Assembly (NCBI GenBank): GCA_016722065.1
Contig: JADKGX010000002.1
Location: forward strand, 57,301 to 121,300
DNA: 64,000 bases
DNA from: Planctomycetota bacterium
GTDB taxonomy: Bacteria; Planctomycetota; UBA8742; UBA2392
Direction: 5' to 3'
Below the pieces are notes generated by a model. It saw only the letters and a list, made by a program, of their open reading frames with translations, searched no databases and was not told the DNA's origin. Below are positions 45,117 to 62,165 of the stretch, piece by piece. The translations under genes and the position numbers were made by a program. How positions within the stretch are numbered: position 1 is the stretch's first letter; each line of letters starts with the position of its first letter.

Positions 45117-45146
45117 CTACGTCCGATAATCGATCAGTTGCGCGGT
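45117..45146 (+). repeat. attL: XerC arm + overlap + degenerate XerD arm
   Basis: CT-ACGTCCGATAA-TCGATC-AGTTGCGCGGT; the first 19 bp are identical to 62136-62154. Confidence 0.85.
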
Positions 45147-45148
45147 GC

Positions 45149-45160
45149 CAGTCCGATAAT
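45149..45160 (+). repeat. Second XerC-arm-like copy
   Basis: GTCCGATAAT repeated exactly 30 bp downstream of the attL copy. Confidence 0.6.
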
Positions 45161-45312
45161 TTTGCCCGCTTTGCGCGGGTGTTGTTCTTGGACTGTACCC
45201 CATGAAACGGTTCGCGTCAAAAGTTTCTGACATACCCTCAACACATCCGCCGTTGTCGCCAGAGTGAGTATCATTTTTCGGTGCCTACAACTGGCTTCGA
45301 AGGAGTTGCCCT

Positions 45313-46128
45313 ATGACAAGCCCAGAACAGAGCCGCAAAGATGCCAATGCACAACTAACGCGCGATGCCAAACGTGCTGGGGGCGCCATGTTACAGGGCG
45401 CCGGGCATGCCCTGGCGTTGCTCACTGACCCAGCCGATGAGCTCAAAGCAATGGGCAGGACGCTGTCAGAAGGCGTCAGGTCGAAGGACTACGCAGAGCG
45501 TGTTGAAGCCTTAGCAACAAGAAAGTGTGTTGCCGCCGCCTCGGCGCATCCCAAGTTGAGGGCGGGTCGGCAGGTCAATAAGCAATCGCTACACCAGTTG
45601 ATTCAGGAACTCACTTTGAAAGCAGTAGAAGCCAGAGTTGAAGATCGAATACGCGCGATTGTTGCTGCCTCGATTGGCGCGACGGAGGATGGGCCAATGG
45701 CAAGCGCGGCTGACTTGTACGCCGCAGAGACCATCCTTCAATCGAAAGACCATCAGATAGCATTCTTCCGGGAGTGGCTGAACAAGTGGATTGGGCCAAA
45801 GTGCCTCAACAATGTGGTGCCATGTCCCCATGCCCAGCTCGTTGGTCCTTATCCGCTACAAGCTGTTTGCGACGACAACATGCGAAACCAAATGGTTAGC
45901 GCGAGTCGCGGTTACTTCCCCGTTCCTCTTGATCACCCGACCAACATTTACGTCGAGACGTTTGTGTTCGGCCTTAAGACTAGTATGGAGATGACCCGAC
46001 AAGACCTGCACGACAAGAACCATCCCTTCGGCCACGGTGTTTGGTGGCCTTCGGAGTTGACTCAACGGATCCACAACGCCCTCGTTCGGGCACGAGAAAA
46101 CATCGAGTTTGAGCTGAATCTGGAGTAA
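45313..46128 (+). CDS. Hypothetical cargo protein (271 aa)
   Basis: Long ORF with AAGGAG RBS; visibly more AT-rich than the element core; no recognisable motif. Confidence 0.7.
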   Translation: MTSPEQSRKDANAQLTRDAKRAGGAMLQGAGHALALLTDPADELKAMGRTLSEGVRSKDYAERVEALATRKCVAAASAHPKLRAGRQVNKQSLHQLIQELTLKAVEARVEDRIRAIVAASIGATEDGPMASAADLYAAETILQSKDHQIAFFREWLNKWIGPKCLNNVVPCPHAQLVGPYPLQAVCDDNMRNQMVSASRGYFPVPLDHPTNIYVETFVFGLKTSMEMTRQDLHDKNHPFGHGVWWPSELTQRIHNALVRARENIEFELNLE

Positions 46129-46147
46129 GCGGTGCCTGGATTGGCCT

Positions 46148-46864
46148 CTAGGTCCTTTTCTTTTTCGCGTCGATACGCGCCCTCATCGCCGCAGCGTGGG
46201 CGGGTGTAACGTACAAGTCCACAAACAACAACTCGACAACGTCGATCGTGTATTCGGCGTCTGCGGCGTCTACATCGATTATGGTTTCTGCTTGGTCGGT
46301 GCTTGGGTGCGCACTCCAGTTACCGATTTCGCGTACATGATGCAGGCTGTCCTGGGTCGGTTTCGTTAGCTCTGGTCGCTTGACGGCTTCCTCGATTTCT
46401 TGAAACAGATCCCGTTTCTTGATAGCCAACTTGATGCGAATCAAGTGCTGGATACAGCGGCGGGCAAGAACCGCTGCGGCCATCGGGGACGATGCCAGAA
46501 CGGCTCGCGCTTGGTCGTAAGCACTCTTGATTTCTGGTTCTACTTCTGGAGGAGCGGCATCTGGCCGAGTGCTTTGAGCGGGCCACAAGAACACGCCCAA
46601 GGGCAGATACGCAGAAAGAGCCAACATGCTAACGCCCACTACCGCGCCGCAACAACTCGCACACTCGGATAGGTGCAACTGTTCCGCAACCCCGTGCGAG
46701 TCTGGCTTCACATTGCGAAAGATCGACCTCTTGGAAGGGTAGCCGTATGTAGCTACCTGAGCGAAGGAACCGTAGGCTCCGCAATGTGGGCAGAGCGCGG
46801 CAGCCCCTGCAAACACGCCTGATTCTTCGAAAACTTGCCGAAGCGGCCTGTGCTTTTTGTTCAT
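46148..46864 (-). CDS. DUF4145 (HEPN-like) protein with N-terminal Zn finger
   Basis: CPHC...CASC; AAAVLARRCIQ...LFQEI...VREIGNWSAH signature. Confidence 0.82.
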   Translation of the reverse strand: MNKKHRPLRQVFEESGVFAGAAALCPHCGAYGSFAQVATYGYPSKRSIFRNVKPDSHGVAEQLHLSECASCCGAVVGVSMLALSAYLPLGVFLWPAQSTRPDAAPPEVEPEIKSAYDQARAVLASSPMAAAVLARRCIQHLIRIKLAIKKRDLFQEIEEAVKRPELTKPTQDSLHHVREIGNWSAHPSTDQAETIIDVDAADAEYTIDVVELLFVDLYVTPAHAAAMRARIDAKKKRT

Positions 46865-46927
46865 AGTGCAAGCAACATATCATCGCCGCATCTGTGCGAG
46901 CAGTTCCCTTTTGGGCTTTTGGTACTG

Positions 46928-47374
46928 TCAAAACGGGATCTCGTCGCTGGTGGTGGCTGGCTCGAACCATGGCACCTGGGCGCCGTCGTCTGACCAGTCT
47001 GGCGCGGCTTCTTCCTGGGTCGGTTCTTCTTCCAGCCCTTTCGTGTTGTCGCGTGGCTGGTAGTGCTTGATCAAGTAGGCTTCGTGATCTAGCGGCTTGT
47101 CCGTTGCATACCACGCAATTTCTACGTCGTCGCGGTGGTAGGCTTCGCGGGGCTCGCCCCGGTCAATCCAATGGCCCATGTGGCGCTTGATCGTCTCGTA
47201 AAGGCGCCCTGTGTGGCTTTCGCCAACATAGAGCATGGCCTTGGTGCGGGCGTTTCGGATGCCGTACACCCCGTCAATCCAAGGCGCCATCTGCTTTGGG
47301 TAGCGCGTGCCTGGCGGGCCTGGGCGAAACCATTCGCCGGGCTTGAACGGGCGCGGGGTTTGAATCTTCTGCAT
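46928..47374 (-). CDS. GIY-YIG-like nuclease with acidic DEIPF tail
   Basis: GVYGIRN...LYVGES...IKRH...E...N pattern; ends TTSDEIPF. Confidence 0.72.
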   Translation of the reverse strand: MQKIQTPRPFKPGEWFRPGPPGTRYPKQMAPWIDGVYGIRNARTKAMLYVGESHTGRLYETIKRHMGHWIDRGEPREAYHRDDVEIAWYATDKPLDHEAYLIKHYQPRDNTKGLEEEPTQEEAAPDWSDDGAQVPWFEPATTSDEIPF

Positions 47375-47463
47375 GGGTTTCTCCGGTGCCTGATTTTTTG
47401 CTCTGCCTGTCGCGGGCCTGCGGTGTATCTTTGCACCTTCAAAGCACTGCCCTGGGGTTCCTT

Positions 47464-48009
47464 ATGACCACTTCTGTCGATGCCTTGATTTGCCCTCACT
47501 GTGCGGCCTCTATCGACGTGCCTGATGGCGTGACGCGCCTCAAGTGCCGGTTCTGCGGTAGCACGCTGGAACTACGCGAAACAGGCAGCGCGCGCGGCCT
47601 GGCGCTGTTGCAAGTGAGCGTTGACAAGATCGCGTCGGGTGTTGACGTGATTGCGCAGCACACGGGCGCGCTGGCCTCGCATACGTTGGGCGCGCGTGAA
47701 CGTTGGAAAGCCGCGTATGATTCCCTGCGTGGCCGGGCGCGCAAACGCATGCTTGCCGCAACGGTCGTGGCGCTCCTGGGCTTCGCGGCGATGTTCGCAA
47801 CGTATGCGTTTCTGACGGCCATAAATGAACTGCCGCCCACGGCGACGGCCACGCAACGGGCGCAAGCGCAACACGACGCGGGGGCCTCGTACCTGTTCGC
47901 CAGCATGTTCGCCACGTTGCCCTTTCTTCTGGCGGCGGGTGTCCTGCAGAAAGGCGCCCAAAACCTGGCAGCGGAAGCCCAAGCCCTGAAACAGCGCGAG
48001 CCGATCTAG
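47464..48009 (+). CDS. Zn-ribbon 2-TM membrane protein
   Basis: CPHC...CRFC, then two hydrophobic helices; opposite strand to the viral operon. Confidence 0.75.
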   Translation: MTTSVDALICPHCAASIDVPDGVTRLKCRFCGSTLELRETGSARGLALLQVSVDKIASGVDVIAQHTGALASHTLGARERWKAAYDSLRGRARKRMLAATVVALLGFAAMFATYAFLTAINELPPTATATQRAQAQHDAGASYLFASMFATLPFLLAAGVLQKGAQNLAAEAQALKQREPI

Positions 48010-48764
48010 CGCGAGACGATCACGGCCACGGCAACCGCGCCAACGGCCAAGGCGACAATCGGCCCCCATGGCATTGATGCCTCAATGCCCTCGCTAATGC
48101 CCTCGCCCACGGCCTTGCCTGTGCGCTTGATCAGATTCTCGGCGCCCTGGGCTACGGCCTCGGCCTGATGGGCAACGTAGTCGTCAACCTCTGACCACTT
48201 CACGGTGAACAGCGGCGCGCCTGGAATGAGGGCAAGCCACGGGTTGCCTTCAACTGCGAAGTCGGCGCCGATCTCGCTGCGCACGGCCTGGGCGTTGCTG
48301 TTGTAGCGGTCTTTGAGGCCGGAAAGCAGCGCGTCGGCCACGCGAACGGCGTGGGCCATCGCTGCGCCTGCGTTGTCGAGTGTGCGGCGCTTGGCGGCGG
48401 TAAACAGCGGCGCGGCGCCTTCCTTGATTGCCTGGGCGATGTTTGCAACGCGGTCGTTGTAGAGGCGCGCGGCGGTGTAGATATCCATAGCCGGGCCGTC
48501 CCACGCCTCTTGCGGGTAGCTGTTCCAGTTCGTCGCCAGCGCAAAGGCTTTGGCCTTGCGGGCTACTTCGTCGGCTTCAAAGAACGCCTGCAAGGTGGCG
48601 TCGTTGGAATAGTCGCCGGGCTTCCAGACCAGACGCGGGATTTCGTCGGCGGTGCCTTGGCTGCCGCGCACGCGCGGGCGGTGCATCTGGCCGGCTGGGG
48701 CGCTGGCGCGTGTGGCCGGCACAAAGCCGAACATGGTGGCGGGGCGTTGGAGTCTGCGGAACAT
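48006..48764 (-). CDS. Putative virion protein with C-terminal membrane anchor
   Basis: Helical body; ends WGPIVALAVGAVAVAVIVSR. Confidence 0.7.
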   Translation of the reverse strand: MFRRLQRPATMFGFVPATRASAPAGQMHRPRVRGSQGTADEIPRLVWKPGDYSNDATLQAFFEADEVARKAKAFALATNWNSYPQEAWDGPAMDIYTAARLYNDRVANIAQAIKEGAAPLFTAAKRRTLDNAGAAMAHAVRVADALLSGLKDRYNSNAQAVRSEIGADFAVEGNPWLALIPGAPLFTVKWSEVDDYVAHQAEAVAQGAENLIKRTGKAVGEGISEGIEASMPWGPIVALAVGAVAVAVIVSR

Positions 48765-48799
48765 GGCGGGCCTTTCGTTGGTGGTGGCCGTGGTGGGGT

Positions 48800-48853
48800 G
48801 GCGACGGGCGCGGGAGCCCCAACGCGGCGCGCCACGCGGGCGCGCCCGTCGCC
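48800..48853. repeat. 13-bp perfect inverted repeat (intergenic hairpin)
   Basis: GGCGACGGGCGCG (48800-48812) / CGCGCCCGTCGCC (48841-48853). Confidence 0.7.
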
Positions 48854-48861
48854 GGGAGTGT

Positions 48862-49353
48862 TCACTTGATCAAGCGCCAAAGCACAAAGGCCAGACCAGC
48901 GCCAATGATGGCGGTGGTGCCGGGGTTGGCCTTGATGGTTTCCATGATGCCGTTGCCCTGGGCCTTGGCGACGGCGTTGGCCACGTCGTCTGCGCGGGCG
49001 TCGGGCACGGCGCCCACGGCGCCCGTGGCGCCTTTGTCGGTCGATGCCGGGCTTGTGGGGCCGGTGGGCTCGGGCAAGCGTTCGGCGGGCTCCTCCACGC
49101 GCTCCACGGGCGCGGCAAGGTTGAGCTGCGCGAACGTGGCAAAGCTGACGTCGTTGCCTGGGTAACTTGTCCAGCGGCCATTTGACGTGCGGCGGAACAT
49201 CGAAACCTCGCGCGGCGGAACGCCGGTGCCTCGATCTGCTGCAAAGGGCTCGCGCAAGTAAGCGACGGTGCCGATGGGATATTCCTTGGGCACGGCGGCG
49301 CCCAAAATGCCGGGCACCTTTGCGGAACCAAAAAAGCCCGTTTCAATGATCAT
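48862..49353 (-). CDS. Putative virion protein with C-terminal membrane anchor
   Basis: Small N-terminal domain, Pro/Ala linker, ends TAIIGAGLAFVLWRLIK. Confidence 0.7.
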   Translation of the reverse strand: MIIETGFFGSAKVPGILGAAVPKEYPIGTVAYLREPFAADRGTGVPPREVSMFRRTSNGRWTSYPGNDVSFATFAQLNLAAPVERVEEPAERLPEPTGPTSPASTDKGATGAVGAVPDARADDVANAVAKAQGNGIMETIKANPGTTAIIGAGLAFVLWRLIK

Positions 49354-49481
49354 GGGGAACCTCGGGAAGTGCCGCCCGCAAGGCAAGGCTTACGGGCGGC
49401 GGGGTGGATTTGTGGCGGGTGGTGTCCTTGGTCGTCCTGGCCTTCGGTTTGCGATCCTGGGGCATTTGTGGCGGTCGTTTT

Positions 49482-49826
49482 TTACTCCCTTGGGCCGGTT
49501 GGCCGGGTTTGCGGCCTGTAGGGCACTTCGGGGAGTTCTTCGCCCTGGTCTTGGTCTTGGTCGTACTCGGCCTGGTCTTGGTCGCTCATGGGGATTGTGC
49601 CGGTGCATCGGTGCGGGTGCGGGCTCAAGGTTTGGCTGATGGCCGGGAGTATCGCGGCGATGCCAGCGGCAAACATGTTTTGCATGGCGGCGGCGCGCTC
49701 GCGGCCTTCCTGCAGAATGCAGTTGTTGCGGTGCCATGCCAGCGCCAGCCGGGCAAAGCCGCCCGCGCTGCTGATCAAGATGGCCGTAATGGCCAGAATC
49801 AAGGCGGCAAAGGGTAGGTCGTTCAT
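49482..49826 (-). CDS. Small membrane protein with acidic tail
   Basis: N-terminal TM (FAALILAITAILISSAGG); CAGGAG RBS. Confidence 0.6.
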   Translation of the reverse strand: MNDLPFAALILAITAILISSAGGFARLALAWHRNNCILQEGRERAAAMQNMFAAGIAAILPAISQTLSPHPHRCTGTIPMSDQDQAEYDQDQDQGEELPEVPYRPQTRPTGPRE

Positions 49827-49877
49827 CGGTGGGGCTCCTGGTGGTGGTCGGGGTTGGTGGTGGTTTGCGTGGCGGTG

Positions 49878-50207
49878 CTACTTGGTGATGGCCTTGAGTA
49901 AGCCGGGAATCAACGTGCCGATCATGCTGGCGCCGCGCGTGACGGCATCTTGCAACGCGGTCGTGAGGGCGCGCGCCGTGGTGATGCTGACGGCGGCCGC
50001 CACGTTCTGTACCTGGGCGGCAAGATCAAGCCGGGCCTGGGCGTCTACCTTGCCTGTGGCCAGTTCGCGCGCGGTGTTGGTGAAAGCGGCGCGCGCCACC
50101 TTGCCCACAAGCGCGCGGTCTTGCTCGCTCCACTTGGCTACCTCGTCGCCAGCGCTGCGCTTGATTGCCTCAAGTATCATGCGGGCAAAATCTCCTGCGG
50201 TCGTCAT
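49878..50207 (-). CDS. Hypothetical helical protein with amphipathic C-terminus
   Basis: GGAG RBS; in operon. Confidence 0.65.
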   Translation of the reverse strand: MTTAGDFARMILEAIKRSAGDEVAKWSEQDRALVGKVARAAFTNTARELATGKVDAQARLDLAAQVQNVAAAVSITTARALTTALQDAVTRGASMIGTLIPGLLKAITK

Positions 50208-50276
50208 TGCAATGGCTCCGGTTGCGGGTTGCGAAAGCCTGCAAGGGGCGCCCGTGGGCGCCCCTTCGGGCGACGG

Positions 50277-50612
50277 TCAAAACGCGAGTCTTACCTTCTC
50301 CACGCCGGTGATGCCTCCGGCCTGCGCGGCCAGCGTGTAGGCCAGCGCCAGCCACAAGCGCTGCGTCTCGCTCTTGGCCTGGCCGGGCGTGAGGCGCTTT
50401 TCCAGTGCGGCCATTTCGCCATGGTGAAAGTTGGTGACGTGGGCGGGCACGCTGCTTGTGGGCGCGCCGTTCAAGCGCTCGGCCAGTTTGCCCAACGTGG
50501 CGATGGCGTCTTGGGCTTCCTCGCCCTGGTGGGGCATCTTGCCGATGCGCTGCATTGCCTCGGCAATCGTGCGGTCGCTCTGGCTGGTCTTGGCTTTGGT
50601 CTTGGCTGCCAT
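50277..50612 (-). CDS. Hypothetical protein
   Basis: AAGGAA RBS; in operon. Confidence 0.6.
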   Translation of the reverse strand: MAAKTKAKTSQSDRTIAEAMQRIGKMPHQGEEAQDAIATLGKLAERLNGAPTSSVPAHVTNFHHGEMAALEKRLTPGQAKSETQRLWLALAYTLAAQAGGITGVEKVRLAF

Positions 50613-50665
50613 GGGTCGGTTTCCTTGCGTTGGTGGTGGTGGTGGTGGTTTGGTTGGTGCCGGGG

Positions 50666-50959
50666 TTACTTGCCCTCGGCCTTTCGCAGCCTCAAGTCCC
50701 ACGTCTTAAGCGTGGTCAAGCCCTGGTCGCGCTGTTCGTCGGTCAAGCTGCTGTCGGCCTCGATGTAGCGGGCCTGGCGCGGCGCCACGGCGTTGTATGT
50801 GGCGCGGTCGGCCTTGACGTACTCGCCCTGCACGGTGCAGCCGCAAAGCAGCGCCAGAAGCGGGCCAAGCACAAGCACAAGCACAAACAGCAACAAGGCG
50901 GCGCGCTCGCGTCGGCGGTCTGTTGGTGGCGGGTTGTCGGTTGTGATCGTCGGGCTCAT
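50666..50959 (-). CDS. Small lipoprotein (o-spanin-like candidate)
   Basis: RRRER + hydrophobic stretch + LLCGC lipobox; short helical mature part. Confidence 0.7.
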   Translation of the reverse strand: MSPTITTDNPPPTDRRRERAALLLFVLVLVLGPLLALLCGCTVQGEYVKADRATYNAVAPRQARYIEADSSLTDEQRDQGLTTLKTWDLRLRKAEGK

Positions 50960-50998
50960 CGGTGGGGCTCCTGTGTGGGTTGCTCGCGGGCTCGCGGG

Positions 50999-51310
50999 CT
51001 AGTTGTCGGTGGGCCTGGCCTTGGTGTTCTCGCGGATTGCGGCGGCAAGCTCCGCGATGTTGGCGCCGCCCTGGGCCATGGCGGCGGTGTGGGCGGTCTG
51101 CGCAACGGCCTGGGCCTCGGCGGCGGTCGCGGCGCGCTCTGCGATGGCAAGCGCGCGGTCGCGGTGCGTGAGTAGCTTGTCAATCAATGGCTGCACGTTC
51201 TCGCGCCACGCGGCTTTGACCACGCGCGAAAGCAAGCCGCCAATGATCAGCAAGGCAGCCGGAAGCGGCGCGTTGCTCAAGAGCGTGGCCAGTGCGGTTG
51301 TTTCGTCCAT
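50999..51310 (-). CDS. Single-TM coiled-coil protein (holin- or i-spanin-like candidate)
   Basis: N-terminal TM (LPAALLIIGGLL) followed by an Ala-rich coiled coil; directly upstream of the lipoprotein. Confidence 0.6.
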   Translation of the reverse strand: MDETTALATLLSNAPLPAALLIIGGLLSRVVKAAWRENVQPLIDKLLTHRDRALAIAERAATAAEAQAVAQTAHTAAMAQGGANIAELAAAIRENTKARPTDN

Positions 51311-51323
51311 GGTGCGGGCTCCG

Positions 51324-52205
51324 TTAGATGCCGTAGTAAGTTTTCAAGTCGTCAACCAACGTGGCATAGTTGGCATAGAGGCCATCGCTTAGGCTTCGCA
51401 GGCAATATCAAGATCGGCCTCGCCCAAGCCCAAGGCGCCCGCGTCGGGTGTCCAGTCGGCATTTTCTGCGACGGTCACAAAGGCGCCGCCGTCGATTGCG
51501 AGTTTCAATTTCTTCTCGCCTGCGGTGTTGTCAAAGCGCACATGCAGAACATGGGCGCCCACGTTGAACGCGGTATTTATCGCGGTCTGCGCGTAGCCTG
51601 TGAGGAAGCCGTAAGCGCGGGCGCCGGTGGTGTATTGGCGCACCACAAAGGGCCGGTTGGAGCCCAAGGCGCATATGCTCAAGTTGTCGTCGGCGGAAAC
51701 GCGGCGCACCACAATAAAGTAGTCGTAACTCTTGGCCGTGATCATGGCGGCGGCGGTGGTGTTCGTCGCCATCCCATGACTAAAGCCCTTTAATGGCTTC
51801 GATGTAGAGCGTGGGCTTGCCGTTAATTGCGTGGTCGCCGTCGCCCTTGCCGTGCTTGTAGTTGTTATTTCCGTTGCTCTGGTATGCCCACAATGCGCCC
51901 TCTGCGGGCGCGCGGCGTTTGATCACCTCGCCTTCGGTGCCTGCTGCGGGTGTGGTGCCCGCAACGTCGGTAAACAGTTTGGCCAAGTCCTCTTGGTAAA
52001 CCCAAGTAAGGCCGGTGCCTGCCAGCGGGTGCGACGGGCCAGCCGGGGGCGCGGGCGCGATGCTGGCGGCCACGCTGGCGGCCAAGCTGACGGCGCTGGC
52101 GACGGTGACGGAAAACAGCGCCGCGCCGCCCAATGCGCCGCCGCCCGCGTAGCCTATGGCGCGCGTGCGGGGCGGTTCGATCACGGGCAAGAACATCGCG
52201 GGCAT
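51324..52205 (-). CDS. Putative spike / receptor-binding protein (LamG-like beta-sandwich), split by two apparent frameshifts
   Basis: Three segments in different frames join into one protein ending ...LVDDLKTYYGI*; breaks at 51782-51784 and about 51395. Confidence 0.55.
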
Positions 52206-52212
52206 GTTTTCC

Positions 52213-52659
52213 CTAGCAGTTGCAAGTTGCGTCGGCGCTGACCATTTCGCGCACTTCGATGCTGACGGTTGCGTCTTTGCGGGTGCTTCCGTCCACGGCG
52301 GAAAGCGCCACAAGATCAAGCGTGAGGCTCTTGATGCCTGCGGGCGCGGCTTCCACCTTGCTGCCCTCGGCGCTGATAAAGAGGCCGCGGCCTGCGGCCA
52401 ATTCGTTCAACGCTTCGTCGGGCGTGAAAGGTGAATTCACGGCCACGAACACAAGCGCGTCGTCGTCGCCGGTGATCGTGGGCCACTGTTGCAACGTGAT
52501 CGCCCACGCCTTTGTTTCGGGGCCGCGCGGCAAGTCGATCTGCACGCGGTGGCTGGTGTCGGCGCTGCTGACCAGCTCGCGCGATGCCCACGGGCGGGCG
52601 CGGCCTGGCACCAAAGGGCGCAAGGCTTCGGCTATCGTTTTGCAATCGCAATCTTTCAT
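52213..52659 (-). CDS. Beta-rich 148-aa protein (penton / single jelly-roll candidate)
   Basis: Alternating hydrophobic beta patterns (RVQIDL, WAITLQ, LVFVAV, LTLDLV, VSIEVRE); lies between the capsid candidates and the spike. Confidence 0.55.
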   Translation of the reverse strand: MKDCDCKTIAEALRPLVPGRARPWASRELVSSADTSHRVQIDLPRGPETKAWAITLQQWPTITGDDDALVFVAVNSPFTPDEALNELAAGRGLFISAEGSKVEAAPAGIKSLTLDLVALSAVDGSTRKDATVSIEVREMVSADATCNC

Positions 52660-52686
52660 GGCCGGGTTTCCTTGGTCTGCCTGGGC

Positions 52687-52713
52687 CGGGCGCGCCGCGC
52701 GACGGCGCGCCCG
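52687..52713. repeat. GC-rich hairpin 3' of the 367-aa gene
   Basis: CGGGCGCGCCG-cgcga-CGGCGCGCCCG. Confidence 0.65.
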
Positions 52714-52748
52714 ATGGCTCACCCCGTCGCGCGGGGCCGGGGTGGGGG

Positions 52749-53891: not shown

Positions 53892-53937
53892 GGCTTGAGT
53901 TGGCGCCCTTGATTGGGCAAGGGCGCCGCTTCAAGCC
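53892..53937. repeat. Long hairpin directly 3' of the 210-aa gene
   Basis: GGCTTGA/TCAAGCC outer stem and GGCGCCCTTG/CAAGGGCGCC inner stem. Confidence 0.72.
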
Positions 53938-53944
53938 GTCAAGA

Positions 53945-54577: not shown

Positions 54578-54634
54578 CTGGTGGTCTCCGGTGTTGGTGG
54601 TGGTCTGGTTGGTGTTCACCCCGCGCGGGGTTTG

Positions 54635-54955
54635 TTACTTGAAAAGCGAACTTCCAAGGCTGCCGATGAAGCCCTTGCCGGTGTCCAGCGCAAAATCAAG
54701 CAGCCGGTCGCCGATGGGCTTGTCCAGCGCCTTGAGTTCGGCCTTGCGTACCTCGGCGGCAAGCTCGGCCTGGCGTTCGCGTGACTGCGCCTCGGCAAGC
54801 CGCGCCTGGGCGTCTGCGGTCAAGGCTGCTGCGCCGCTATCGGGCGGAAGCAATGCCTCGTTTGTGGCGGGTTTCTTGCTGACGTAGAGCAAGCCGCCCA
54901 CAACTACTGCGGCGGCAAGTCCTCCGATGGCAAGTGTTGCTCCGTTGATCTTCAT
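54635..54955 (-). CDS. N-anchored virion membrane protein
   Basis: MKINGATLAIGGLAAAVVVGGLLYVSKK TM, coiled coil, amphipathic C-terminus. Confidence 0.72.
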   Translation of the reverse strand: MKINGATLAIGGLAAAVVVGGLLYVSKKPATNEALLPPDSGAAALTADAQARLAEAQSRERQAELAAEVRKAELKALDKPIGDRLLDFALDTGKGFIGSLGSSLFK

Positions 54956-55005
54956 GGCCGGGCGTCCTTGTGTGGTCTGTTCTTGGGTTGGCGTTTCCCT
55001 TGAAA

Positions 55006-55482
55006 TCAGTTCACAAGATCGCGCACGCGGCCATTTTGCGGGCGGTCGTTGGCGACGGTGCGCGAAATGCCCTTGCTGCCTTCGACGGTGGGCTCGGTGG
55101 TGGCCTTGGCGGGCTTCACCTTCTCGGCAATCCACGCGGCCAGTTCCTTGATTGCGGGGGCCGCGCGGCCTGCGACGGCCAAGGCGGTGCCGCCCAAGAT
55201 CGCGGCGGCAAACTTCTTGGTCGCCTTGATCTTGCTGGCGCCAAAGGCCACGGCGATGCCAGCGCCAGCGGCGATGGCGCTGGTGATCACCTGGCGCTTG
55301 GTGGTCTCGGTCGCGGCGGGCTCGCCCATCGCGGCGTTGGCCACTTCGGCGGCGACGGTTGACAAGCCTGCGCCGGTCAAGGTTGCGGCGCCCTGTTTGA
55401 CGGCGGGCACAAGCGCCAGCGCGCGATTGCCGCCGTTGCTGCTTTTGCCGGGCGGCTTGCGGGTTCCTTTGTTTCCTGCCAT
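55006..55482 (-). CDS. Multi-TM virion membrane protein
   Basis: Basic N-terminus plus two to three Gly/Ala-rich hydrophobic helices; CAGGAG RBS. Confidence 0.7.
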   Translation of the reverse strand: MAGNKGTRKPPGKSSNGGNRALALVPAVKQGAATLTGAGLSTVAAEVANAAMGEPAATETTKRQVITSAIAAGAGIAVAFGASKIKATKKFAAAILGGTALAVAGRAAPAIKELAAWIAEKVKPAKATTEPTVEGSKGISRTVANDRPQNGRVRDLVN

Positions 55483-55543
55483 GGCTCTTACTCCTGGTTG
55501 GTGGTGGTCTGCCTGGTGTGTGTTGCTGGTGTGCGTGGCCGGA

Positions 55544-55909
55544 TTAGCCCACGGTCTTGCGCAGCCGATCACGCGCGGCGTTTAGCGCCGTGCGTTCTTC
55601 GTCTGTGAGTCCTTTGACAAAGCCGGAAGCGTGGGCAAGTTTGCCGTCGCTGCAAAACTGCGAGTCGGCAAGCTGCTTGATAATCCGCAAGCCCTGGGCC
55701 TCTTTCTGCGTGAGGGTGGGGCGGGCGGGTTGCGGTGTGGCCTTGCGCGTGGCCTTGCGGGCCGGTTTGCGCGGCGTGGCCTTGCGCTTGGCCTTGGGGG
55801 CCGGTTTGCGCGGCGTGGCCTTGCGCGTGGCCTTGCGGGCGGGCTTGCGCGCGGCGGGCTTGCGCTTGGCCTTGGGGGCCGGTTTGCGGTTGGTTGTCTT
55901 TTTGCTCAT
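55544..55909 (-). CDS. Histone-H1-like basic DNA-condensing protein
   Basis: Repeats of RKPAPKAKRK / RKPARKATRKATP over the first 60 aa. Confidence 0.72.
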   Translation of the reverse strand: MSKKTTNRKPAPKAKRKPAARKPARKATRKATPRKPAPKAKRKATPRKPARKATRKATPQPARPTLTQKEAQGLRIIKQLADSQFCSDGKLAHASGFVKGLTDEERTALNAARDRLRKTVG

Positions 55910-57450
55910 CTGCCTTTGCCTCCTGTAAGTGCCAAGCCGATCACAACTGCCGCGCCTGCCGCACAAGCCGCCCAAATCCAGCCGGGCGGGCCGGTGCTTT
56001 GCGGCGGGCCTGGGCCGGTGGGCTCGGGTGCTTCGGGCGGTAGCAGCGCCACTTGCGCGGCTTCGGTGGTCTGTTTGCTGACGGCGATTTCGGATTCCAG
56101 CGCCGCGATTTCGGCCTTGATCGTGTCCACCTTGGTTTGTTCGGTCGCGGCCTGGGCTAGTGCGCGCTCGCGGGCTTCCTGCACCTGGCGTGCATCGCGG
56201 CGGTCTTGGATTGCGCGGTGAATCGCGGTGCCAGCGGCCACGGAAGCGGCGCCAAGGGCGGCGGCGGCGATGTTGTAGGGCACGGGCAAGAATGGCGCCG
56301 CCACAAGTAGCGCGCGGCCTGCGGCGGTGAACGTCTGCGCGCCAGCCTCGGCCACGGCGGTTTCATCAAAGGCGGAAACGCTGCCATCAATGAACACGGC
56401 GCCAAGCTGGTTGAGGATTTCGGCCTGGGCGAAAAAGCCAAGCGGCTTCAAGAGAAAAGTCGCCAGCCACGGCGCGGTTTTCTCGGTGCGCAAGATGTTT
56501 TCGGCCAATGCTTGCGCGCCCTTGCCTATTTCCTCGATCACGTTTCGCACAAACTTAAGCGGGTGGGTAAACAGCCGCTTGAGGCTGTCGCCAATGCCGT
56601 TGGAACCGGTCACGCTGCCGATCATTACGGGCGGCGTGGTGATCGCGCTGCCTGCAAGGCCGGTGGCGATGGCCTCGCGCGCGGCGATGTTGTCCAGCGC
56701 CACGGGCGCGGCTTGGTGCAAGGCTAGCGCGTCGTCTATGGCGGTGCCCTGGGCCGTGAAGATTTGCGCCATGCGGGCCGCGACCACGGCGGCAAGCTGT
56801 ACGTCGGTTGCGGTGGGGTTGCCCTCGTTGGCCAGCGCGAAGGCGCGCAAGGCGGCGCGGCGCTGCGTGAAGCCTTCGCCGGGCTCGATCATGGAACCGG
56901 CCCAACGTGAGGCCAGCGCAATATTGAGGCTGCCCAAATCGCGCGGTTGCGCCAGCGGCGCCAGTGTGGCGGCGCGCACAAGCACGCCAGCGGGTCGAAA
57001 GCCCTGGTCAACGTAGGCCAGCCGGAACGCGATAAAATGCAGCATCGCGGCGCGGGTTTCGTTGTAGGTGCCAGCGGAAAGCGCTTTTTCGACGGCGGCG
57101 CGCGCGGGCGCGCCCTTGGCGCGTCCGATCATGGCAAGAAACACGTTGGTTTGTTCTTCGCTCAAGGCGCGGAGTAGATCGCCCCACGTTCTGATGGTCG
57201 GGTTGTCGGGCGCGGGCGCGGCCTGCATCTGCGCAAGCGGCAAGGCTGCGAGTAGCGCGGCCTTGGTGACTGAGCCGGTAAAGCCTGACTCAAGCGCCGA
57301 TTGGCGCGGGCCTGTGCCGCCGCCCGCGTCCTTGTCGCCAATGCGGCGCCAGTAGGCTTCGCGGATTGCGGCGGGCACAAGCTGCCATGCGCGCCAGTCC
57401 ATTACGGCGGGCGCGGTGGCGGGCAAGCTGTATTCGGCGGCAAGGCTCAC
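55906..57450 (-). CDS. Large Ala-rich virion protein (about 514 aa) with internal hydrophobic hairpin and C-terminal TM
   Basis: GTG start overlapping the upstream stop, GGAGG RBS; ends WIWAACAAGAAVVIGLALTGGKGR. Confidence 0.7.
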   Translation of the reverse strand: MSLAAEYSLPATAPAVMDWRAWQLVPAAIREAYWRRIGDKDAGGGTGPRQSALESGFTGSVTKAALLAALPLAQMQAAPAPDNPTIRTWGDLLRALSEEQTNVFLAMIGRAKGAPARAAVEKALSAGTYNETRAAMLHFIAFRLAYVDQGFRPAGVLVRAATLAPLAQPRDLGSLNIALASRWAGSMIEPGEGFTQRRAALRAFALANEGNPTATDVQLAAVVAARMAQIFTAQGTAIDDALALHQAAPVALDNIAAREAIATGLAGSAITTPPVMIGSVTGSNGIGDSLKRLFTHPLKFVRNVIEEIGKGAQALAENILRTEKTAPWLATFLLKPLGFFAQAEILNQLGAVFIDGSVSAFDETAVAEAGAQTFTAAGRALLVAAPFLPVPYNIAAAALGAASVAAGTAIHRAIQDRRDARQVQEARERALAQAATEQTKVDTIKAEIAALESEIAVSKQTTEAAQVALLPPEAPEPTGPGPPQSTGPPGWIWAACAAGAAVVIGLALTGGKGR

Positions 57451-57941
57451 GCAAGCCTCCAATGCTGGCGGCGCGGATAGTGCGGCATATCGGCGCGTGT
57501 GTTGAACGGGTGGCCGGTCTGGTCTGCCTTCGGGTCGGAAAGCCACATCTTGCCGCCTGCGAAAAACTCAACGGCGGCGTGGCGGTACGGGTCGGCCTCG
57601 TCGCCAGCCGTGACCAGATAGACGCGGGCAAAGCCAAGCACGCGCAAGCCTGCCATGATCACGGCGGCCCACTGGTCGCAATCTCCGCCGTGGGCGATGG
57701 TCTCCGATACTTCCTGAATCGGGTCGCACTCGTCGCGGTCGCTCTGGCGGTAGATGCCTGCGCGGGCGGCGTCGTGTAAGGCTTCGGCGGTGGTGGCGTT
57801 GTTGGCGTGCATCCAAGCCACAAGCGCGCGGCGCTGGTCAAGATCGCGGGCGCCACGCTGCGCAGCCGCCAAAATCGCCGGGATAGTTTCGACCGGGTAG
57901 CGGCGGCGCTTGTCTGCTTGGCTGGTGTAGCAGAATTCCAC
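57447..57941 (-). CDS. Transglutaminase-like (Cys-His-Asp) protein
   Basis: GGDCDQWAAVIMAGL...YRHAAVE...WLSDP triad pattern. Confidence 0.8.
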   Translation of the reverse strand: MEFCYTSQADKRRRYPVETIPAILAAAQRGARDLDQRRALVAWMHANNATTAEALHDAARAGIYRQSDRDECDPIQEVSETIAHGGDCDQWAAVIMAGLRVLGFARVYLVTAGDEADPYRHAAVEFFAGGKMWLSDPKADQTGHPFNTRADMPHYPRRQHWRLA

Positions 57942-57946
57942 GGTGA

Positions 57947-58297
57947 CTACTCCACGGGCTTCGGTGCGGGCTTTGCGGTCTCTTGACTGGTCAAGTCTGC
58001 TTTGATCTCGCCTTGCGCCTGGTGAATCATGCGCACTACCTCGGCGCGCAACTTGGGCGCGCTGGCCAGTGCGGTACGGTGCGCGATGCGTTTCAGCGGC
58101 GGCAACGTAGCAAGGCCGGTCTCGATGATGTGCGACGGCGGCGCGCCCACAAGCGCGCGCTTGGCCTGGGCGGAAAGCCCGTGCATGGCGGCGCGTGCAA
58201 GCTGTTCGTCGCTTTCCCAAAGCGCCAGCGCCTTGCCCAACAAGCGGGCGTCGGCGGGCGGCAAGGGAATCGGGCGCGGCTTGGGGACGCTGCTCAT
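57947..58297 (-). CDS. Hypothetical protein
   Basis: ATGA overlap with the upstream gene, GGAGG RBS. Confidence 0.6.
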   Translation of the reverse strand: MSSVPKPRPIPLPPADARLLGKALALWESDEQLARAAMHGLSAQAKRALVGAPPSHIIETGLATLPPLKRIAHRTALASAPKLRAEVVRMIHQAQGEIKADLTSQETAKPAPKPVE

Positions 58298-59202
58298 TCT
58301 GCGCCCTCCACGTCGGAAACTTCGGCGGTCGTGTCCACGGTTTTTACGCCGGTCATCTTCTCGCGGGCGTATTCAAAAATGGCCTGGATGTTTTCTTCGC
58401 TGGCGATGTTGTCCATGAAGCGCGCCAGCGCGCCGGGCTTGTCCTCGCGCACGTCCTCGGCGGCCTCGATCAACGGCGCGAGTTCGGCCTTCATGCGGGC
58501 GCCCAAGCTGGTCAACTTGCGCACCTCGCCAATTACCTTGCTGATTTGCTCCATGGGGTCTACGGGCTTGCGGGCGCGCTCGATCACGTCAAGCACAAGC
58601 TCGCGGCCTAGCATGTCCATGGGCGACGGCGCGGCCTGGCGCTGTTCCAGCCGTTCCAGCGCGCGGCGCATTTCCGCAAGCTCGGGGTTGGGCGCGGCGT
58701 GGTCGGGCGCGGCCTGGGCCTGGGCGGCGTCGGGCTCGATCATCAAAGCAAAGTGGGCCTCGTGCTTGCCGTCCTGGTCACTCCACGCCACGGTTCCTGC
58801 AACGTGGCCAGCGCCAGCGCGGCGCCGCATTGTTGCAATGGCATCGGGCGCCAGATGCGCCAGCGGGCACGCGATTTCCCGGCCTTGATCGGCGGTAAAC
58901 TTCACGGTGGCGGCGCGGTGGGGGACGGCCTGCAATTCGTCGGCGGTAAAGGCGCCGCCGTCAATCAAGCCCTGCAAGTAGCGCGGGATGGGCGCGGTTG
59001 AGCCGGTGCCGCGCCCGTTTTCCGCGTGGGCCTCTGCGCGCCGAACGGTGGGGCCGCGCGTGGGTGGCTCGGGGCGCGGTTCGGCGGGCATCGGCGGGAA
59101 GTCGTCGTCTAGCTCGTCGTCGGCGGGGTTGCCGCCCATGCGGTCGGAAAACAGCGCGGTGTTTGCCGTGTTGAGCGTGGGCTCTGTGCTGTCCGGTTGC
59201 AT
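58294..59202 (-). CDS. Hypothetical protein (acidic/Pro N-terminus, helical C-terminus); first gene of the putative late operon
   Basis: About 302-aa ORF coupled to the downstream gene. Confidence 0.65.
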   Translation of the reverse strand: MQPDSTEPTLNTANTALFSDRMGGNPADDELDDDFPPMPAEPRPEPPTRGPTVRRAEAHAENGRGTGSTAPIPRYLQGLIDGGAFTADELQAVPHRAATVKFTADQGREIACPLAHLAPDAIATMRRRAGAGHVAGTVAWSDQDGKHEAHFALMIEPDAAQAQAAPDHAAPNPELAEMRRALERLEQRQAAPSPMDMLGRELVLDVIERARKPVDPMEQISKVIGEVRKLTSLGARMKAELAPLIEAAEDVREDKPGALARFMDNIASEENIQAIFEYAREKMTGVKTVDTTAEVSDVEGAE

Positions 59203-60664
59203 GGGCGGCGCCTCGCGGGTTGTGGCTGCTGCCACAAGCTCAAGCCACCATCGTAAACGGTGCACCCACGCTGCTCGCGGCCGGGCAACAATCTTGGATC
59301 CAGGCGCGGGGCCTGATGGCCACGGTTTCCTAGCCGCGGGTCGTGGTACTTTCGGGCGATGGCCTCAAGCTGCGCCAGCGTGGCGCACGTTGGGGCCGGT
59401 GCGTAACTTTCGCGCCACGCCGGGCGGCCTGCTTTGAGCCAGTCTTGGGCGTCCATCTGCAAGCGCAAAGGCCAGCGCCCGCGCCGGGCCTCGTCAATCG
59501 CGGCATCCTGAAACGGCGCCAGCCGCGCGGCAAACGCGTCGGCCATCGCTTCACGGTCTGCGCGGGCCTGGTCTCGCGCGGAATCCTGCGCCTGATGCAA
59601 CTGCCTGCGGTTCGCAAGTGTTGACTCGTCAAGGGCGCGGCCTTGTGGCTGTTGGTCGTTGCCGTTGGCTGGTAGCTGCATGGCCTGGCGCAAGGCGGCG
59701 CGGCGCTGTTGGTCTTGGTGCCAGCGGTCTACCGTGATTGCGCCCTCGGGCAACGTGAGACGTTCGCCGCGTTGGAAACGGCGCACCATATCGCGCAAGA
59801 ATCCCCAACATTCGTTGGCCTGCTGTTGCGGTTTGCGAGTTTCTCCAGCGCCATCGTGAGCGCAGCGGGCGTGGCGCTGGCGCCGATCTGTGCAAAGTCG
59901 CGCATATCGGCGGGCGTTAGCAGGCAGACCACGCGGGCGAAAGCTGCAAGGGCGTCGGGGCTCCCTTCTGCTGCTGCTTTATCTTGCTTCTGCATATCTG
60001 CTTTTAGGCGGTCGTCGGATGGGCTTGCTGGTGCGGTTCCTGGGCGTTGGTTGGTGGTGTATACCACCTGGTTTGGTGGTATATGCGCGGGTGGGGTGGT
60101 GGTGTGCACCACCAACTCTGGTGGTGTAGACCACCTATCTTGGTGGTGTATACCACCAACTTTGGCGTCGGTTTCTGCGTCGGTTTCTGCCTGGATTTCG
60201 TCGCCCTGGTCGGCCTGGGTTTCGGTGTTATCCACACTCTTGATGGGCGCGTTTCCGGTGTTCGTTTCTCGCCAGTATGGCCGGGCATCGCATAGCGATT
60301 TGAGATTGCTGACGGCCTGGGCGCCGTCGTGAAACACAAGCGCGCCGGTGCGGTCTTTCCATGCGCCATAGTCTGTGTTGAGGATGTAGCGGGCTTTGCT
60401 GGTCTCGATCAAGATGCCACGCCAGACCAGCCGCTTAAGTGCGCGGTAGCAGTCGCCACGGGCGCTGCGTTGGCTGTTGAGCCACGGGCCGGTGGCCACG
60501 TTGATCAGCGCAGATTTCTGCCATTGCTGCGGCGTGCCGTACATGTAAGCGATTGCCGACAACATCAAGCCGGATTCGGCCTGGCTCAAGTCCATTTGCG
60601 CCAGCGCAAAAAGCAAGTCGTGGCATGGCGTGGCGAAGGGCTTGGCGCGTAGTTTGTAGCTCAC
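59109..60664 (-). CDS. Lambda-O-like replication initiator; apparent -1 frameshift at 59803-59806; C-terminal end uncertain
   Basis: N-terminus LLFALAQMDLSQAE...AYMYG...ALKRLVWRGIL...LNTDYGAW resembles the Phage_rep_O winged helix; one more G gives NVGGFLRDMVRRF and joins ORF 59109-59798. Confidence 0.72.
60053..60157. repeat. Iteron array (putative origin) inside the rep gene
   Basis: GGTGG-N6-CCACC at 60053, 60098, 60120 and 60142, plus a half-site at 60075; spacing 22/23/22/22 bp. Confidence 0.85.
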
Positions 60665-60975
60665 TTGGCGGGCTCCTGCTTGGGCGCTGTGCGCCAGTAG
60701 ATTGCGTGTAAGGCCAGATACAACGCGGCCATGGGGCCGTGATTGATTGCGGCCTCTGTCATTGCGTGGCCTAGCTTGGCGGGGTTGCGGGCGGCCTGGG
60801 CGGCCTGGGCCAGCGCGCGCAAGATGGTTTCGCTGCTGGCCAAGCATTGCACGGGGCCGCGCGCCATCTCCCACGCTTCGACGGTCTCTGTCTGCACTCC
60901 GATCACGCGCGCCAGCACAAGGGTTGAAAGCCCAAGGTCGGCGCGCGTTTTCCAGACAAGATCGGGCGTGATCAT
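60661..60975 (-). CDS. XRE-type HTH transcriptional regulator
   Basis: TRADLGLSTLVLARVIGVQTETVEAWE. Confidence 0.8.
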   Translation of the reverse strand: MITPDLVWKTRADLGLSTLVLARVIGVQTETVEAWEMARGPVQCLASSETILRALAQAAQAARNPAKLGHAMTEAAINHGPMAALYLALHAIYWRTAPKQEPAK

Positions 60976-61304
60976 TGCTCGGCCTCGTCGCCATCCCACG
61001 GGCCTGATGCGGGGCTTATGGCCATGCGGCGGGCGGCCTGTAGGTCTGCGCGGGTGTCCAGCGGGTTTGCTTTGTTGCTGCGCAGCGCTGGCGGGATGGA
61101 GGCATCGCGCACGCGGGCGCGCGCAAGCATGGCAAGCAATGCCTTGGGCGTTTGCTCAATGCCCGTGGCGCGGCTGGTTTCCATCAAGATACCGGCCACG
61201 CTTCGCCCGTCTCGCCATAGCTCGATGGCAAGGGCGCGGGCGTCGGCGCGGGCTTCTGTGATGCGGCGGCGCAAGCTGCGCGCAATGGTGGTGGGGGCAT
61301 TCAT
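60972..61304 (-). CDS. Putative DNA-binding protein
   Basis: AIELWRDGRSVAGI helix pattern; translationally coupled on both sides. Confidence 0.55.
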   Translation of the reverse strand: MNAPTTIARSLRRRITEARADARALAIELWRDGRSVAGILMETSRATGIEQTPKALLAMLARARVRDASIPPALRSNKANPLDTRADLQAARRMAISPASGPWDGDEAEQ

Positions 61305-61594
61305 TGTTGCACCACCTGGCGCAAGCCGCGCACAACGCCAATGCAAAGGCGGGCGGGCGGCTTGCCTTCGCAGTAGAAGCGCAACGCGGTGGGGTGGCCG
61401 TTGGCGTCGTACTCGGCGCCATCGGCGCGGAAGCCTGGGCAAGCTGTCGAGCAACATTTGCCATCGGCGGAAAGCGGGCAAGCGGTGGCCTCTGCAAGTT
61501 CTTCCTCGGTGGCCTTCACGCGGCTAAACGTGCCGGGCGCACCTGGAAGCCGCAGACCATCGCGGCCAAACAAGCCCTGGTTGACGGTTTTCAA
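61301..61594 (-). CDS. Small Cys-rich protein
   Basis: CP...CCSTACP...C...C pattern; GTGA/ATGA overlaps. Confidence 0.6.
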   Translation of the reverse strand: MKTVNQGLFGRDGLRLPGAPGTFSRVKATEEELAEATACPLSADGKCCSTACPGFRADGAEYDANGHPTALRFYCEGKPPARLCIGVVRGLRQVVQQ

Positions 61595-62085
61595 GCTGCA
61601 CCACCTTGCGCGCGCTGCGCGTAGGTGGCGGCCCGTAGAACGCTGGCGGTGGCTTCGGCGGCGCGCTGGTTATCGGGAACGTAACCAAAAAGCATGGCCG
61701 TGTCTCCGCGCCCATGCACCCCACAAGCCAAGATCACGGCCTCGGGCTTGCTGTTGTTCGGGTTGATCACTGGCGCCGTGCGGAAGTCGCTGCACACTGA
61801 GCCTGCGCAGTGGGCCAGATGCCCGCGCGGGCATTTCGTGGCCTCGCAAGCCTCGGCCACGGTGCGGAAGCGGCGCAAGCCTGCATCGGGTGAGATTGGC
61901 TCGGGCTCGCGGGCCTGGGCGATGGCCTGGGCCGGTGTGGCCGGGGCGCCCTTTTGGATGCGCCAGCCGCCACGGCTGCCGCACTCGCCAGCGCTGCATA
62001 GTTGCTTTGCAAGCGCGCCGTCGCGCTTGTGGTTCCATGGGCGGCTTGCGCCGCACTCCTTGCACTCGATTAACACGTCGTCCAC
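61591..62085 (-). CDS. Cys-rich two-module Zn-binding protein; first gene of the element
   Basis: CKEC...CSAGEC and a second C...CP...CAGSVC...C module; AAGGAAAG RBS. Confidence 0.65.
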   Translation of the reverse strand: MDDVLIECKECGASRPWNHKRDGALAKQLCSAGECGSRGGWRIQKGAPATPAQAIAQAREPEPISPDAGLRRFRTVAEACEATKCPRGHLAHCAGSVCSDFRTAPVINPNNSKPEAVILACGVHGRGDTAMLFGYVPDNQRAAEATASVLRAATYAQRAQGGAA

Positions 62086-62137
62086 CTTTCCTTGTGGACT
62101 GGCGTGTCCGCCTGTTCGCTTCCGGGCGTAATCTTCT

Positions 62138-62165
62138 ACGTCCGATAATCGATCTTATGTTCGGT
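62138..62165 (+). other. attR = intact dif-like site (XerC arm / 6-bp overlap / XerD arm)
   Basis: ACGTCCGATAA-TCGATC-TTATGTTCGGT; 11-6-11 layout with ATAA/TTAT inner symmetry; right arm matches E. coli TTATGTTAAAT at 8/11. Confidence 0.82.

Follow-up and report, generated by a model that had tools for sequence, protein, structure and literature searches.

How an island can come to lie at the dif site of a bacterial chromosome while carrying no recombinase of its own, and what kind of element such an island is, are the questions raised by the locus described here. The window, a 64-kb stretch of a planctomycete assembly (C2:57301-121300), contains an exact 19-bp direct repeat, CTACGTCCGATAATCGATC, at positions 45117-45135 and 62136-62154, which bounds a unit of 17,019 bp. 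A 19-mer repeat is expected by chance only about 7e-4 times within 20 kb (an estimate). An earlier reading of the sequence, referred to here as the original prediction, had proposed that this unit is a tailless provirus inserted at dif, and the terminal repeats, their spacing and the planctomycete host that it named have all been borne out. The element is very probably a tailless provirus whose capsid protein has a double jelly-roll (DJR) fold, and we consider it likely to be a tailless icosahedral virus that infects a lineage of Planctomycetota and has its genome integrated here. Because it is inserted at dif, carries no recombinase and encodes a DJR capsid protein, it is placed here as a previously undescribed lineage of a known kind of tailless virus.

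Insertion at dif and the forms of attP

At the right end of the element, attR (62136..62165, plus strand) is a regenerated chromosomal dif, ACGTCCGATAA-TCGATC-TTATGTTCGGT, with the 11-6-11 layout (XerC arm, 6-bp centre, XerD arm) and, as in other bacterial dif sites, symmetric inner bases (ATAA/TTAT). A search of the 3.86-Mb assembly for the generic dif pattern N7-ATAA-N6-TTATGT-N5 gave one match, at attR. Cumulative GC skew has its origin-type switch at C1:1.855 Mb, and the terminus-type one is on C2. Masking the island places the latter near 114 kb, about 12 kb from dif (102.4 kb on C2). At the left end, attL (45117..45146, plus strand) is a hybrid: its XerC arm ACGTCCGATAA is that of dif, its centre is TCGATC, and its XerD arm, AGTTGCGCGGT, is degenerate and comes from the element. 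This design recurs in the related elements L007, L046, L003 and L022. A second XerC-arm-like half-site, AGTCCGATAA (45150..45159, plus strand), lies 3 nt past the degenerate XerD arm; it is kept in L007 and L046, and not in L003.

The genes on either side are chromosomal. To the left lies dapA, encoding 4-hydroxy-tetrahydrodipicolinate synthase (43445..44506, minus strand; TIGR00674, 303 bits), which is near dif in every related genome examined, and to the right a gene for a 414-aa secreted or anchored protein (62319..63563, plus strand), which adjoins dif in all relatives. In the island-free genomes G001 and G002 (same genus) and G005 (same family), the two genes are about 1 kb apart with a single dif between them, ACGTCCGATAA-TCGATN-TTATGTYCGGT. 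In a further island-free genome, G013 (L025, G013:C1:1014000-1025000), a single dif adjoins the gene for the 414-aa protein, dapA is about 3.5 kb off, and something else may occupy the site. The dif of these four relatives is identical or nearly so to attR, and a single dif at this locus is what the original prediction had expected of genomes that lack the island. An earlier genome-wide survey failed to predict dif for Planctomycetes (PMC3025954), and the sequence shared by the three close relatives provides a comparative, experimentally usable dif for this phylum.

The host encodes one XerC (335.8 bits) and one XerD (345.6 bits), both above the NCBIfam equivalog cut-offs and both on C1. A whole-genome search with PF00589 gave four matches, all on C1, and neither Pfam nor PHROGs revealed a tyrosine recombinase in the island. 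The unique dif at attR, the hybrid attL and the absence of a PF00589 match from the island uphold the predicted insertion at dif by an element lacking its own recombinase, and the element is classified with high confidence as an integrative mobile element exploiting Xer (IMEX). We infer that integration depends on the Xer recombinases of the host: XerC and XerD would recombine an attP, consisting of the dif XerC arm, the 6-bp centre and a degenerate XerD arm, into dif, and the recombination would leave one working dif (attR) and one crippled hybrid (attL). TLC-phi and the IMEX of the gonococcal island likewise have a good XerC arm and centre, a defective XerD arm and a functional dif on one side only. 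Unlike the present element, TLC-phi is a satellite filamentous phage and the gonococcal element is a genomic island. TLC needs the factor XafT, and no XafT homologue was found in the element.

Related elements occupy the same position in other genomes. L046 (GCA_964267785.1), whose genome is about 98% identical, carries the same provirus at the same dif, with 96.2% identity over 15.2 kb and the genes beside attL exchanged. L007, L003, L048 and L052 are integrated beside the same flank gene, and copies of the element are also present in G018 (17,058 bp) and G011 (14,189 bp). The capsid family was found in 3 of the 401 sampled genomes of the phylum, all from one family. The attP is left-armed in this element, L007, L046, L003 and L051. 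It is also left-armed in G018, where the whole element is inverted relative to dif, and right-armed in G011, where a 27-bp repeat takes in the centre together with the XerD arm and the complete dif lies towards dapA. Since left-armed, inverted left-armed and right-armed designs all occur within the family, the att site evolves fast, tracking the dif of the host.

Two members of the family have been recovered in a form expected after excision. L004, a 16,913-bp contig from a different sample, is a circular permutation of the 16,722-bp L003 island, with one att site in which the core is flanked by exactly 23 nt from the attR side of L003 and 39 nt from its attL side. The contig L051 (17,055 bp) has direct repeats of 144 bp at its ends and the left-armed attP ACGTCCGATAA-TCGATG-TTGTGCTGTTC, and it shares 99.9% identity with L052, an element integrated next to a true dif. 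Because both contigs carry the attP junction, the predicted attP molecule, or a tandem array with an equal junction, exists for these two family members. Tandem integrated copies also give a junction of the attP type, so the apparently circular contigs are no proof of free circles, and the copy in the window is single-copy in its assembly, with no episomal contig. A more distant locus, L049 (ENA ERZ25073254, G+C 51%), encodes a capsid protein about 40% identical, and the element ends with a gene that matches Phage_integrase weakly; because of this gene, the element family may include integrase-type besides dif-type members, like the phages of Vibrio.

The capsid protein and the probable virion module

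The evidence for a virus comes mainly from a 367-aa protein encoded at 52749..53852 (minus strand). About 35 full-length relatives were found among 1.8 billion representative proteins, on contigs with matching gene order. AlphaFold2, run on a 37-sequence alignment, gave a model of two beta-rich halves (pLDDT 84.1, pTM 0.79) in which a helical insert at about residues 83-160 is poorly modelled. Foldseek, proposed as a check in the original prediction and run on the models of this protein and of a 224-aa neighbour, matched the 367-aa protein to DJR capsid proteins: in the PDB the best match was the PBCV-1 capsid protein (E 1.3e-5), with PRD1 P3, Faustovirus, STIV and PM2 P2 also matched, and in BFVD the matches were chlorovirus, Klosneuvirus and Megaviridae proteins, the STIV coat protein and ASFV B646L. 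Top matches in both libraries had E values of 1e-6 to 1e-3, and DJR capsid proteins of at least six virus families head both lists. Judging from its predicted fold, the 367-aa protein is the DJR major capsid protein of the element, and the non-caudoviral morphogenetic module of the original prediction is thereby supported, with no HK97-type, terminase, portal or tail match. The helical insert has 55-89% identity to short modules in more than 100 otherwise unrelated proteins, many of which carry it at the C-terminus; the carriers checked included a Phage_cement_2 protein and a beta-helix, pectate-lyase-like protein. The recurrence of the module in such proteins fits a position on the virion surface, and the insert probably projects from each trimer.

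Sequence comparison gave little to set beside the model. The capsid profile matched no PDB chain sequence at E <= 10, the protein matched none of 50,697 phage records, and a pattern scan of IMG/VR for the capsid family returned 38 pattern matches with no relative among them. When the approximately 27 island genes were searched against Pfam, PHROGs and NCBIfam, none scored above threshold except a DUF4145 cargo gene, and a terminase, portal or tail was matched by neither Pfam nor PHROGs. The near absence of curated-family matches, together with the lack of a relative in the scan of the viral-contig catalogue, points to a blind spot in virus detection. The genes, called with a codon-usage model, lie on the minus strand, many with 4-nt overlaps, and form operons. 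In comparison with L046, dN/dS is 0.03-0.4 in 22 of 23 genes, so the reading frames are real and under purifying selection. A hydropathy scan predicts a transmembrane segment in about nine late proteins. These results, together with a 121-aa protein of pI 11.9, agree with the coupled minus-strand operons of membrane and basic proteins described in the original prediction, and the lack of a recombinase, terminase, portal or tail that it had noted also stood up to the Pfam, PHROGs and PF00589 searches.

Several observations weigh against a viral interpretation. The TM-scores from Foldseek are modest: they reach 0.34-0.37 in the top PDB matches, and the values of 0.47 (PM2 P2) and 0.59 (one BFVD entry) result from normalisation by the shorter target. 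Planctomycetes also commonly have cellular DJR proteins (DUF2961; PMC8812541). The model of the 224-aa protein, an N-terminal helix followed by a beta-sandwich, has a moderate pLDDT of 66.8, and its Foldseek matches are weak and jelly-roll-like. None of the island genes was identified as encoding a vertex protein, a repressor or a lysis function. As regards DUF2961, the 367-aa protein has no PF11175 match, and 4kq7 and 7v1v are absent from the Foldseek top 50. A non-viral island or integrated plasmid that exploits Xer, with a DJR-fold protein that builds no capsid, would be consistent with the lack of any gene with a curated viral family match, the lack of an ATPase, the cellular DJR proteins of the phylum (PMC8812541) and the absence of a relative from the IMG/VR scan. 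However, the best structural matches are viral capsid proteins rather than DUF2961, PNGase F or PHM, the 367-aa protein carries a virion-surface module, and a module of about 12 genes, for beta, membrane and basic proteins, travels with three replication modules and three attP designs. Such constancy is the pattern expected of a virus morphogenetic module, and a non-viral origin is regarded as very unlikely. The core module is common to this element, L007, L003, L022 and L023, and mostly to L001. Besides the capsid gene, it includes the genes for the transglutaminase-like peptidase, the 514-aa membrane-anchored protein, the 224-aa protein, the protein of 148-169 aa encoded after the capsid gene and the 148-aa GIY-YIG-like protein.

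Other kinds of phage were considered and rejected. A tailed-phage remnant is contradicted by the lack of terminase, portal and tail and by a capsid fold that is a double jelly roll and not HK97, and a filamentous phage by the lack of a Zot-like ATPase and by the same capsid fold. Phage-ZRK32 from a deep-sea planctomycete (PMC10945688) was set aside: it is 21.9 kb long and extrachromosomal and carries metabolic genes, and the capsid protein of the element matched no phage record.

The FtsK/HerA-type packaging ATPase that serves to recognise DJR-capsid viruses was not found in the element. The Walker A motif [AG]x4GK[ST] is absent from all six frames of the island, in keeping with the lack of a Walker-A protein noted in the original prediction, and no conserved or convincing P-loop motif was seen in five relatives. 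Because no packaging ATPase is found in the family, the genome is presumably condensed and enclosed during assembly and not pumped in. In the virion, the 367-aa DJR protein would be joined by two beta proteins (224 aa and 148 aa), by about nine membrane proteins of small size, by the anchored 514-aa protein and the transglutaminase-like peptidase, and by a basic protein of histone-like character. It is tentatively proposed, as an idea that we consider rather doubtful, that the family is a deep, unsampled DJR branch that encloses a 17-kb double-stranded genome without a motor, by means of a histone-like protein and co-assembly with a membrane. If true, this would be the largest motor-less member of the realm, and would offer a living system in which to test the proposed ancestral status of motor-less DJR viruses (PMC8812541). 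As a third DJR lineage without a packaging ATPase, and the largest to date, the family sharpens the question of how such capsids acquire DNA.

The genes closest to that of the capsid protein would contribute to the same module. Directly downstream, at 52213..52722 (minus strand), lies the gene for a beta-rich protein of 148-169 aa, whose position is kept in L001, L003, L007 and L023 and which is a candidate vertex (penton) protein. Upstream, at 53945..54619 (minus strand), is the gene for the conserved 224-aa (or 210-aa) protein, which is present in all elements and has the highest codon-usage score in the island; the protein may be a second capsid, vertex or packaging protein.

Replication, packaged genome and known relatives by type

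The replication initiator gene (59109..60664, minus strand) is a single open reading frame (ORF) of 445-464 aa in L007, L003 and L048. In the present copy it is split at a G-run near 59805, where the frame shifts by 1 nt, and a second indel occurs near 59330. Inside the gene lies a putative origin (60053..60157) consisting of four palindromic 16-bp iterons, GGTGGTGTATACCACC, in a 22-bp phase and a half-site, followed by an A-rich stretch (59962-60005). None of 100 shuffles (0/100) reached four iteron matches. In L003 the iterons encode a different repeat peptide, which is what co-variation of iterons and initiator would be expected to produce. The presence of iterons inside the initiator gene agrees with the original prediction, and the lambdoid character that it ascribed to the replicon holds as an analogy of layout. 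As in lambda O/ori, origin iterons and then an A-rich stretch lie within the coding sequence of the initiator. In contrast to lambda, the element has no Phage_rep_O homology and no P-like helicase loader, and its iterons are perfect 16-bp palindromes. No relative of the initiator was found in phage and plasmid collections, the 311-aa initiator fragment and the intact L007 protein matched nothing in Pfam, NCBIfam or PHROG, Phage_rep_O included, and no rolling-circle Rep family matched in the element. After excision, the circle of about 17 kb would replicate from the four iterons in the initiator gene with the help of host replication proteins.

The state of the initiator gene raises the question of whether this copy is active, and is a further point on the negative side. 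The L046 initiator is in frame at the position of the 59805 break and is itself broken near 59608, so that either the copy may not replicate or the assemblies carry homopolymer errors. This copy could be a defective, vertically inherited remnant, unable to replicate, of a family that is otherwise active: the ORF is interrupted at different places in the two genomes, these genomes are about 98% identical and have the same provirus at the same site, and the provirus is single-copy here with no episomal contig. Set against this, 22 of the 23 other genes are intact, with the low dN/dS given above, and the downstream, C-terminal part of the initiator, when read in the correct frame, still has a dN/dS of 0.10. 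Each break is a change of a single nucleotide within a G/C run, in assemblies that look as if they were built from long reads, and the L046 assembly also splits the host flank gene, so that sequencing error is a plausible cause. A defective remnant is therefore considered possible, though somewhat unlikely.

The replication module is not shared by the whole family. L001, a distant relative, joins the same structural module to a single-stranded DNA-binding protein (SSB) and a Rep_1 rolling-circle initiator, which indicates that the replication module is exchangeable. Members of one virus family thus differ both in a swapped replication module and in the design of attP. For the element itself, a lipid-containing virion, a dsDNA genome and theta replication are proposed; its replication mode, membrane, packaging mode and packaged nucleic acid should all be taken as predictions.

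An alternative is that the family packages circular ssDNA, as FLiP and PhiCjT23 (Finnlakeviridae) do, and that the dsDNA forms are replicative only. FLiP-like viruses share with the element a DJR capsid, the lack of a packaging ATPase and integration at dif through XerCD (PMC9719478, PMC5894146), putative members of the FLiP group reach 17 kb, and L001 has the Rep_1 initiator and SSB alongside the same structural module. However, the element and four relatives carry a predicted iteron-binding initiator, with no rolling-circle Rep and no SSB. Rolling-circle replication is in any case compatible with double-stranded packaging, since PM2 replicates by rolling circle and yet packages dsDNA. In addition, the capsid profile matched no PDB chain sequence, and no FLiP or PhiCjT23 chain was among the Foldseek top 50. 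Packaging of ssDNA is regarded as improbable.

The original prediction had stated that no described virus shows the combination of features seen here, and this does not hold, because such DJR phages have already been published. PM2-like DJR prophages of the dif type in Vibrio have full, left-armed or right-armed attP (PMC12715192), and PhiCjT23-like DJR prophages are flanked by dif in Flavobacterium (PMC9719478), so dif-integrating DJR phages were described in 2022 and 2025 (PMC9719478, PMC12715192). DJR groups without an ATPase, namely the Odin group and the ssDNA FLiP group, with putative FLiP members of up to 17 kb, were described in 2018 (PMC5894146). The capsid sequence family, the host phylum, the 17-kb size without a packaging ATPase and the initiator with internal iterons appear to be new. 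No DJR virus of Planctomycetota, no report of this capsid sequence family and no motor-less member with an iteron initiator was found in the literature. The element would extend the Xer-hijacking tailless viruses to Planctomycetota.

The PM2-like prophages of the dif type (Vibrio, Pseudoalteromonas; Corticoviridae/Vinavirales) are likewise tailless, have a DJR capsid and no integrase, and use host XerC/D at dif; they also have variable cargo beside att and several attP versions, as in the present family (PMC12715192). In contrast to them, the element has no sequence similarity in any gene, is 17 kb rather than about 10 kb long, lacks a P9-type ATPase and has no detected P15/XafT or P16/RstR terminal genes. 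In place of a rolling-circle Rep it has an initiator whose gene contains the iterons, and its host belongs to Planctomycetota. Homology to P2, P9 and P15/P16 of Corticoviridae was sought in PHROG, Pfam and PDB sequences and in the 50,697 phage records, and no match was obtained.

The Finnlakeviridae/FLiP group also combines a DJR capsid with the lack of a packaging ATPase, dif-flanked prophages and putative members of <=17 kb, and its capsid sequences cannot be connected to other DJR groups, as is the case for the element (PMC9719478, PMC5894146). Whereas Finnlakeviridae have ssDNA, M13-like rolling-circle Reps and Bacteroidota hosts, the element has an iteron initiator and shows no sequence match or preferential structural match to them. 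The Odin group likewise has a DJR capsid and no packaging ATPase, and the gene immediately upstream of that for the capsid protein encodes a conserved protein (PMC5894146). Odin genomes differ in being 7-11 kb long and in carrying ParB and PD-(D/E)XK nucleases, and no dif integration is described for them in the sections consulted.

Cargo and smaller genes

The early operon (60661..62085, minus strand) is translationally coupled and encodes Cys-rich proteins of 164 aa and 97 aa, a basic protein of 110-169 aa and a helix-turn-helix (HTH) protein of 104-112 aa. The HTH assignment is weak (phrog_14076, E 0.003; HTH_31 weak on the L007 homologue). The late operon opens with genes (57947..59265, minus strand) for a 116-aa basic protein and a 302-323-aa acidic (pI 4.9) helical protein, which may be scaffold-like. 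They are followed by a 164-aa transglutaminase-like cysteine peptidase (57447..57941, minus strand; PF01841, E 0.0039, below the curated cut-off), in which Cys88, His121 and Asp136 are invariant in seven homologues; the transglutaminase-like profile found no relative among PDB sequences. The next gene (55906..57546, minus strand) encodes an Ala-rich protein of 514-546 aa with a C-terminal membrane anchor, the largest conserved protein of the virion module, which is conserved in all elements and has no family match.

The 121-aa basic protein mentioned above (55544..55909, minus strand; pI 11.9) is built of Lys/Arg/Ala/Pro repeats encoded by tandem 39-nt repeats; it has homologues in L007 and L022 and is a candidate DNA-condensing protein. 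Two small membrane proteins of 106 aa and 158-188 aa (54635..55572, minus strand), with transmembrane segments, are conserved in L007 and L003. Beyond the capsid gene and its neighbour, the distal late genes (48006..52196, minus strand), assigned by the codon model and the hydropathy scan, encode ten small proteins, five of which have a transmembrane-like segment above the scan threshold (252 aa, at its C-terminus; 114, 97, 103 and 179/138 aa). Two late genes, at 51389-51772 (127 aa) and 50277-50612, are 88% and 84% identical to those of L046, compared with about 97% elsewhere, and dN/dS of the latter is near 1 in the same comparison; they are candidates for host-recognition or otherwise fast-evolving proteins.

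Next to attL, a variable cargo region of low G+C (55-56%; 45313..46864) contains a 271-aa plus-strand ORF with a weak coding signal and the DUF4145 gene. The latter (46148-46864, minus strand) encodes a 238-aa protein that is a candidate for anti-phage defence of the PD-T7-4-like type (PF13643, E 4.5e-15; phrog_1305; PADLOC PD-T7-4, E 1.2e-16). PD-T7-4 is a single-gene anti-phage defence system. Other genes occupy this position in L046 and L007, which suggests a swappable slot for defence or cargo.

The last conserved gene before attP (46928..47374, minus strand) encodes a 148-aa GIY-YIG-like protein with a C-terminus, D-E-I-P-F, that resembles an SSB tail. It is conserved in L001, L003, L007 and L022 and has a dN/dS of 0.03; G35, Y37, LYVGESH, R57, E98 and PRDN are invariant in the alignment, and the sole PDB sequence match is the N-terminal GIY-YIG domain of UvrC (E 0.34). 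Homologues (L026-L045) ending in D-[DE]-[IV]-P-F occur in about 20 metagenome-assembled genomes (MAGs) of Myxococcota, Verrucomicrobiota and Planctomycetota. Several of them lie between direct repeats that resemble tRNA-gene fragments and are about 10-11.5 kb apart, and one contig, L038, has a 54-nt terminal repeat and an implied circle of about 13.9 kb. The gene may therefore mark other small proviruses. In a Phycisphaeraceae MAG (L034/L035, CAYMNQ010000005.1), a 15,865-bp unit that includes a GIY-YIG homologue and lacks any Walker A ORF longer than 150 aa is present in tandem at 100% identity near a dapA-like stretch. Both copies begin at a shared dif-like site, CATAA-CAGTTA-TTCTCGGACGT-TGGGGG, and the pair may be a tandem array of an IMEX that belongs to a different virus family.

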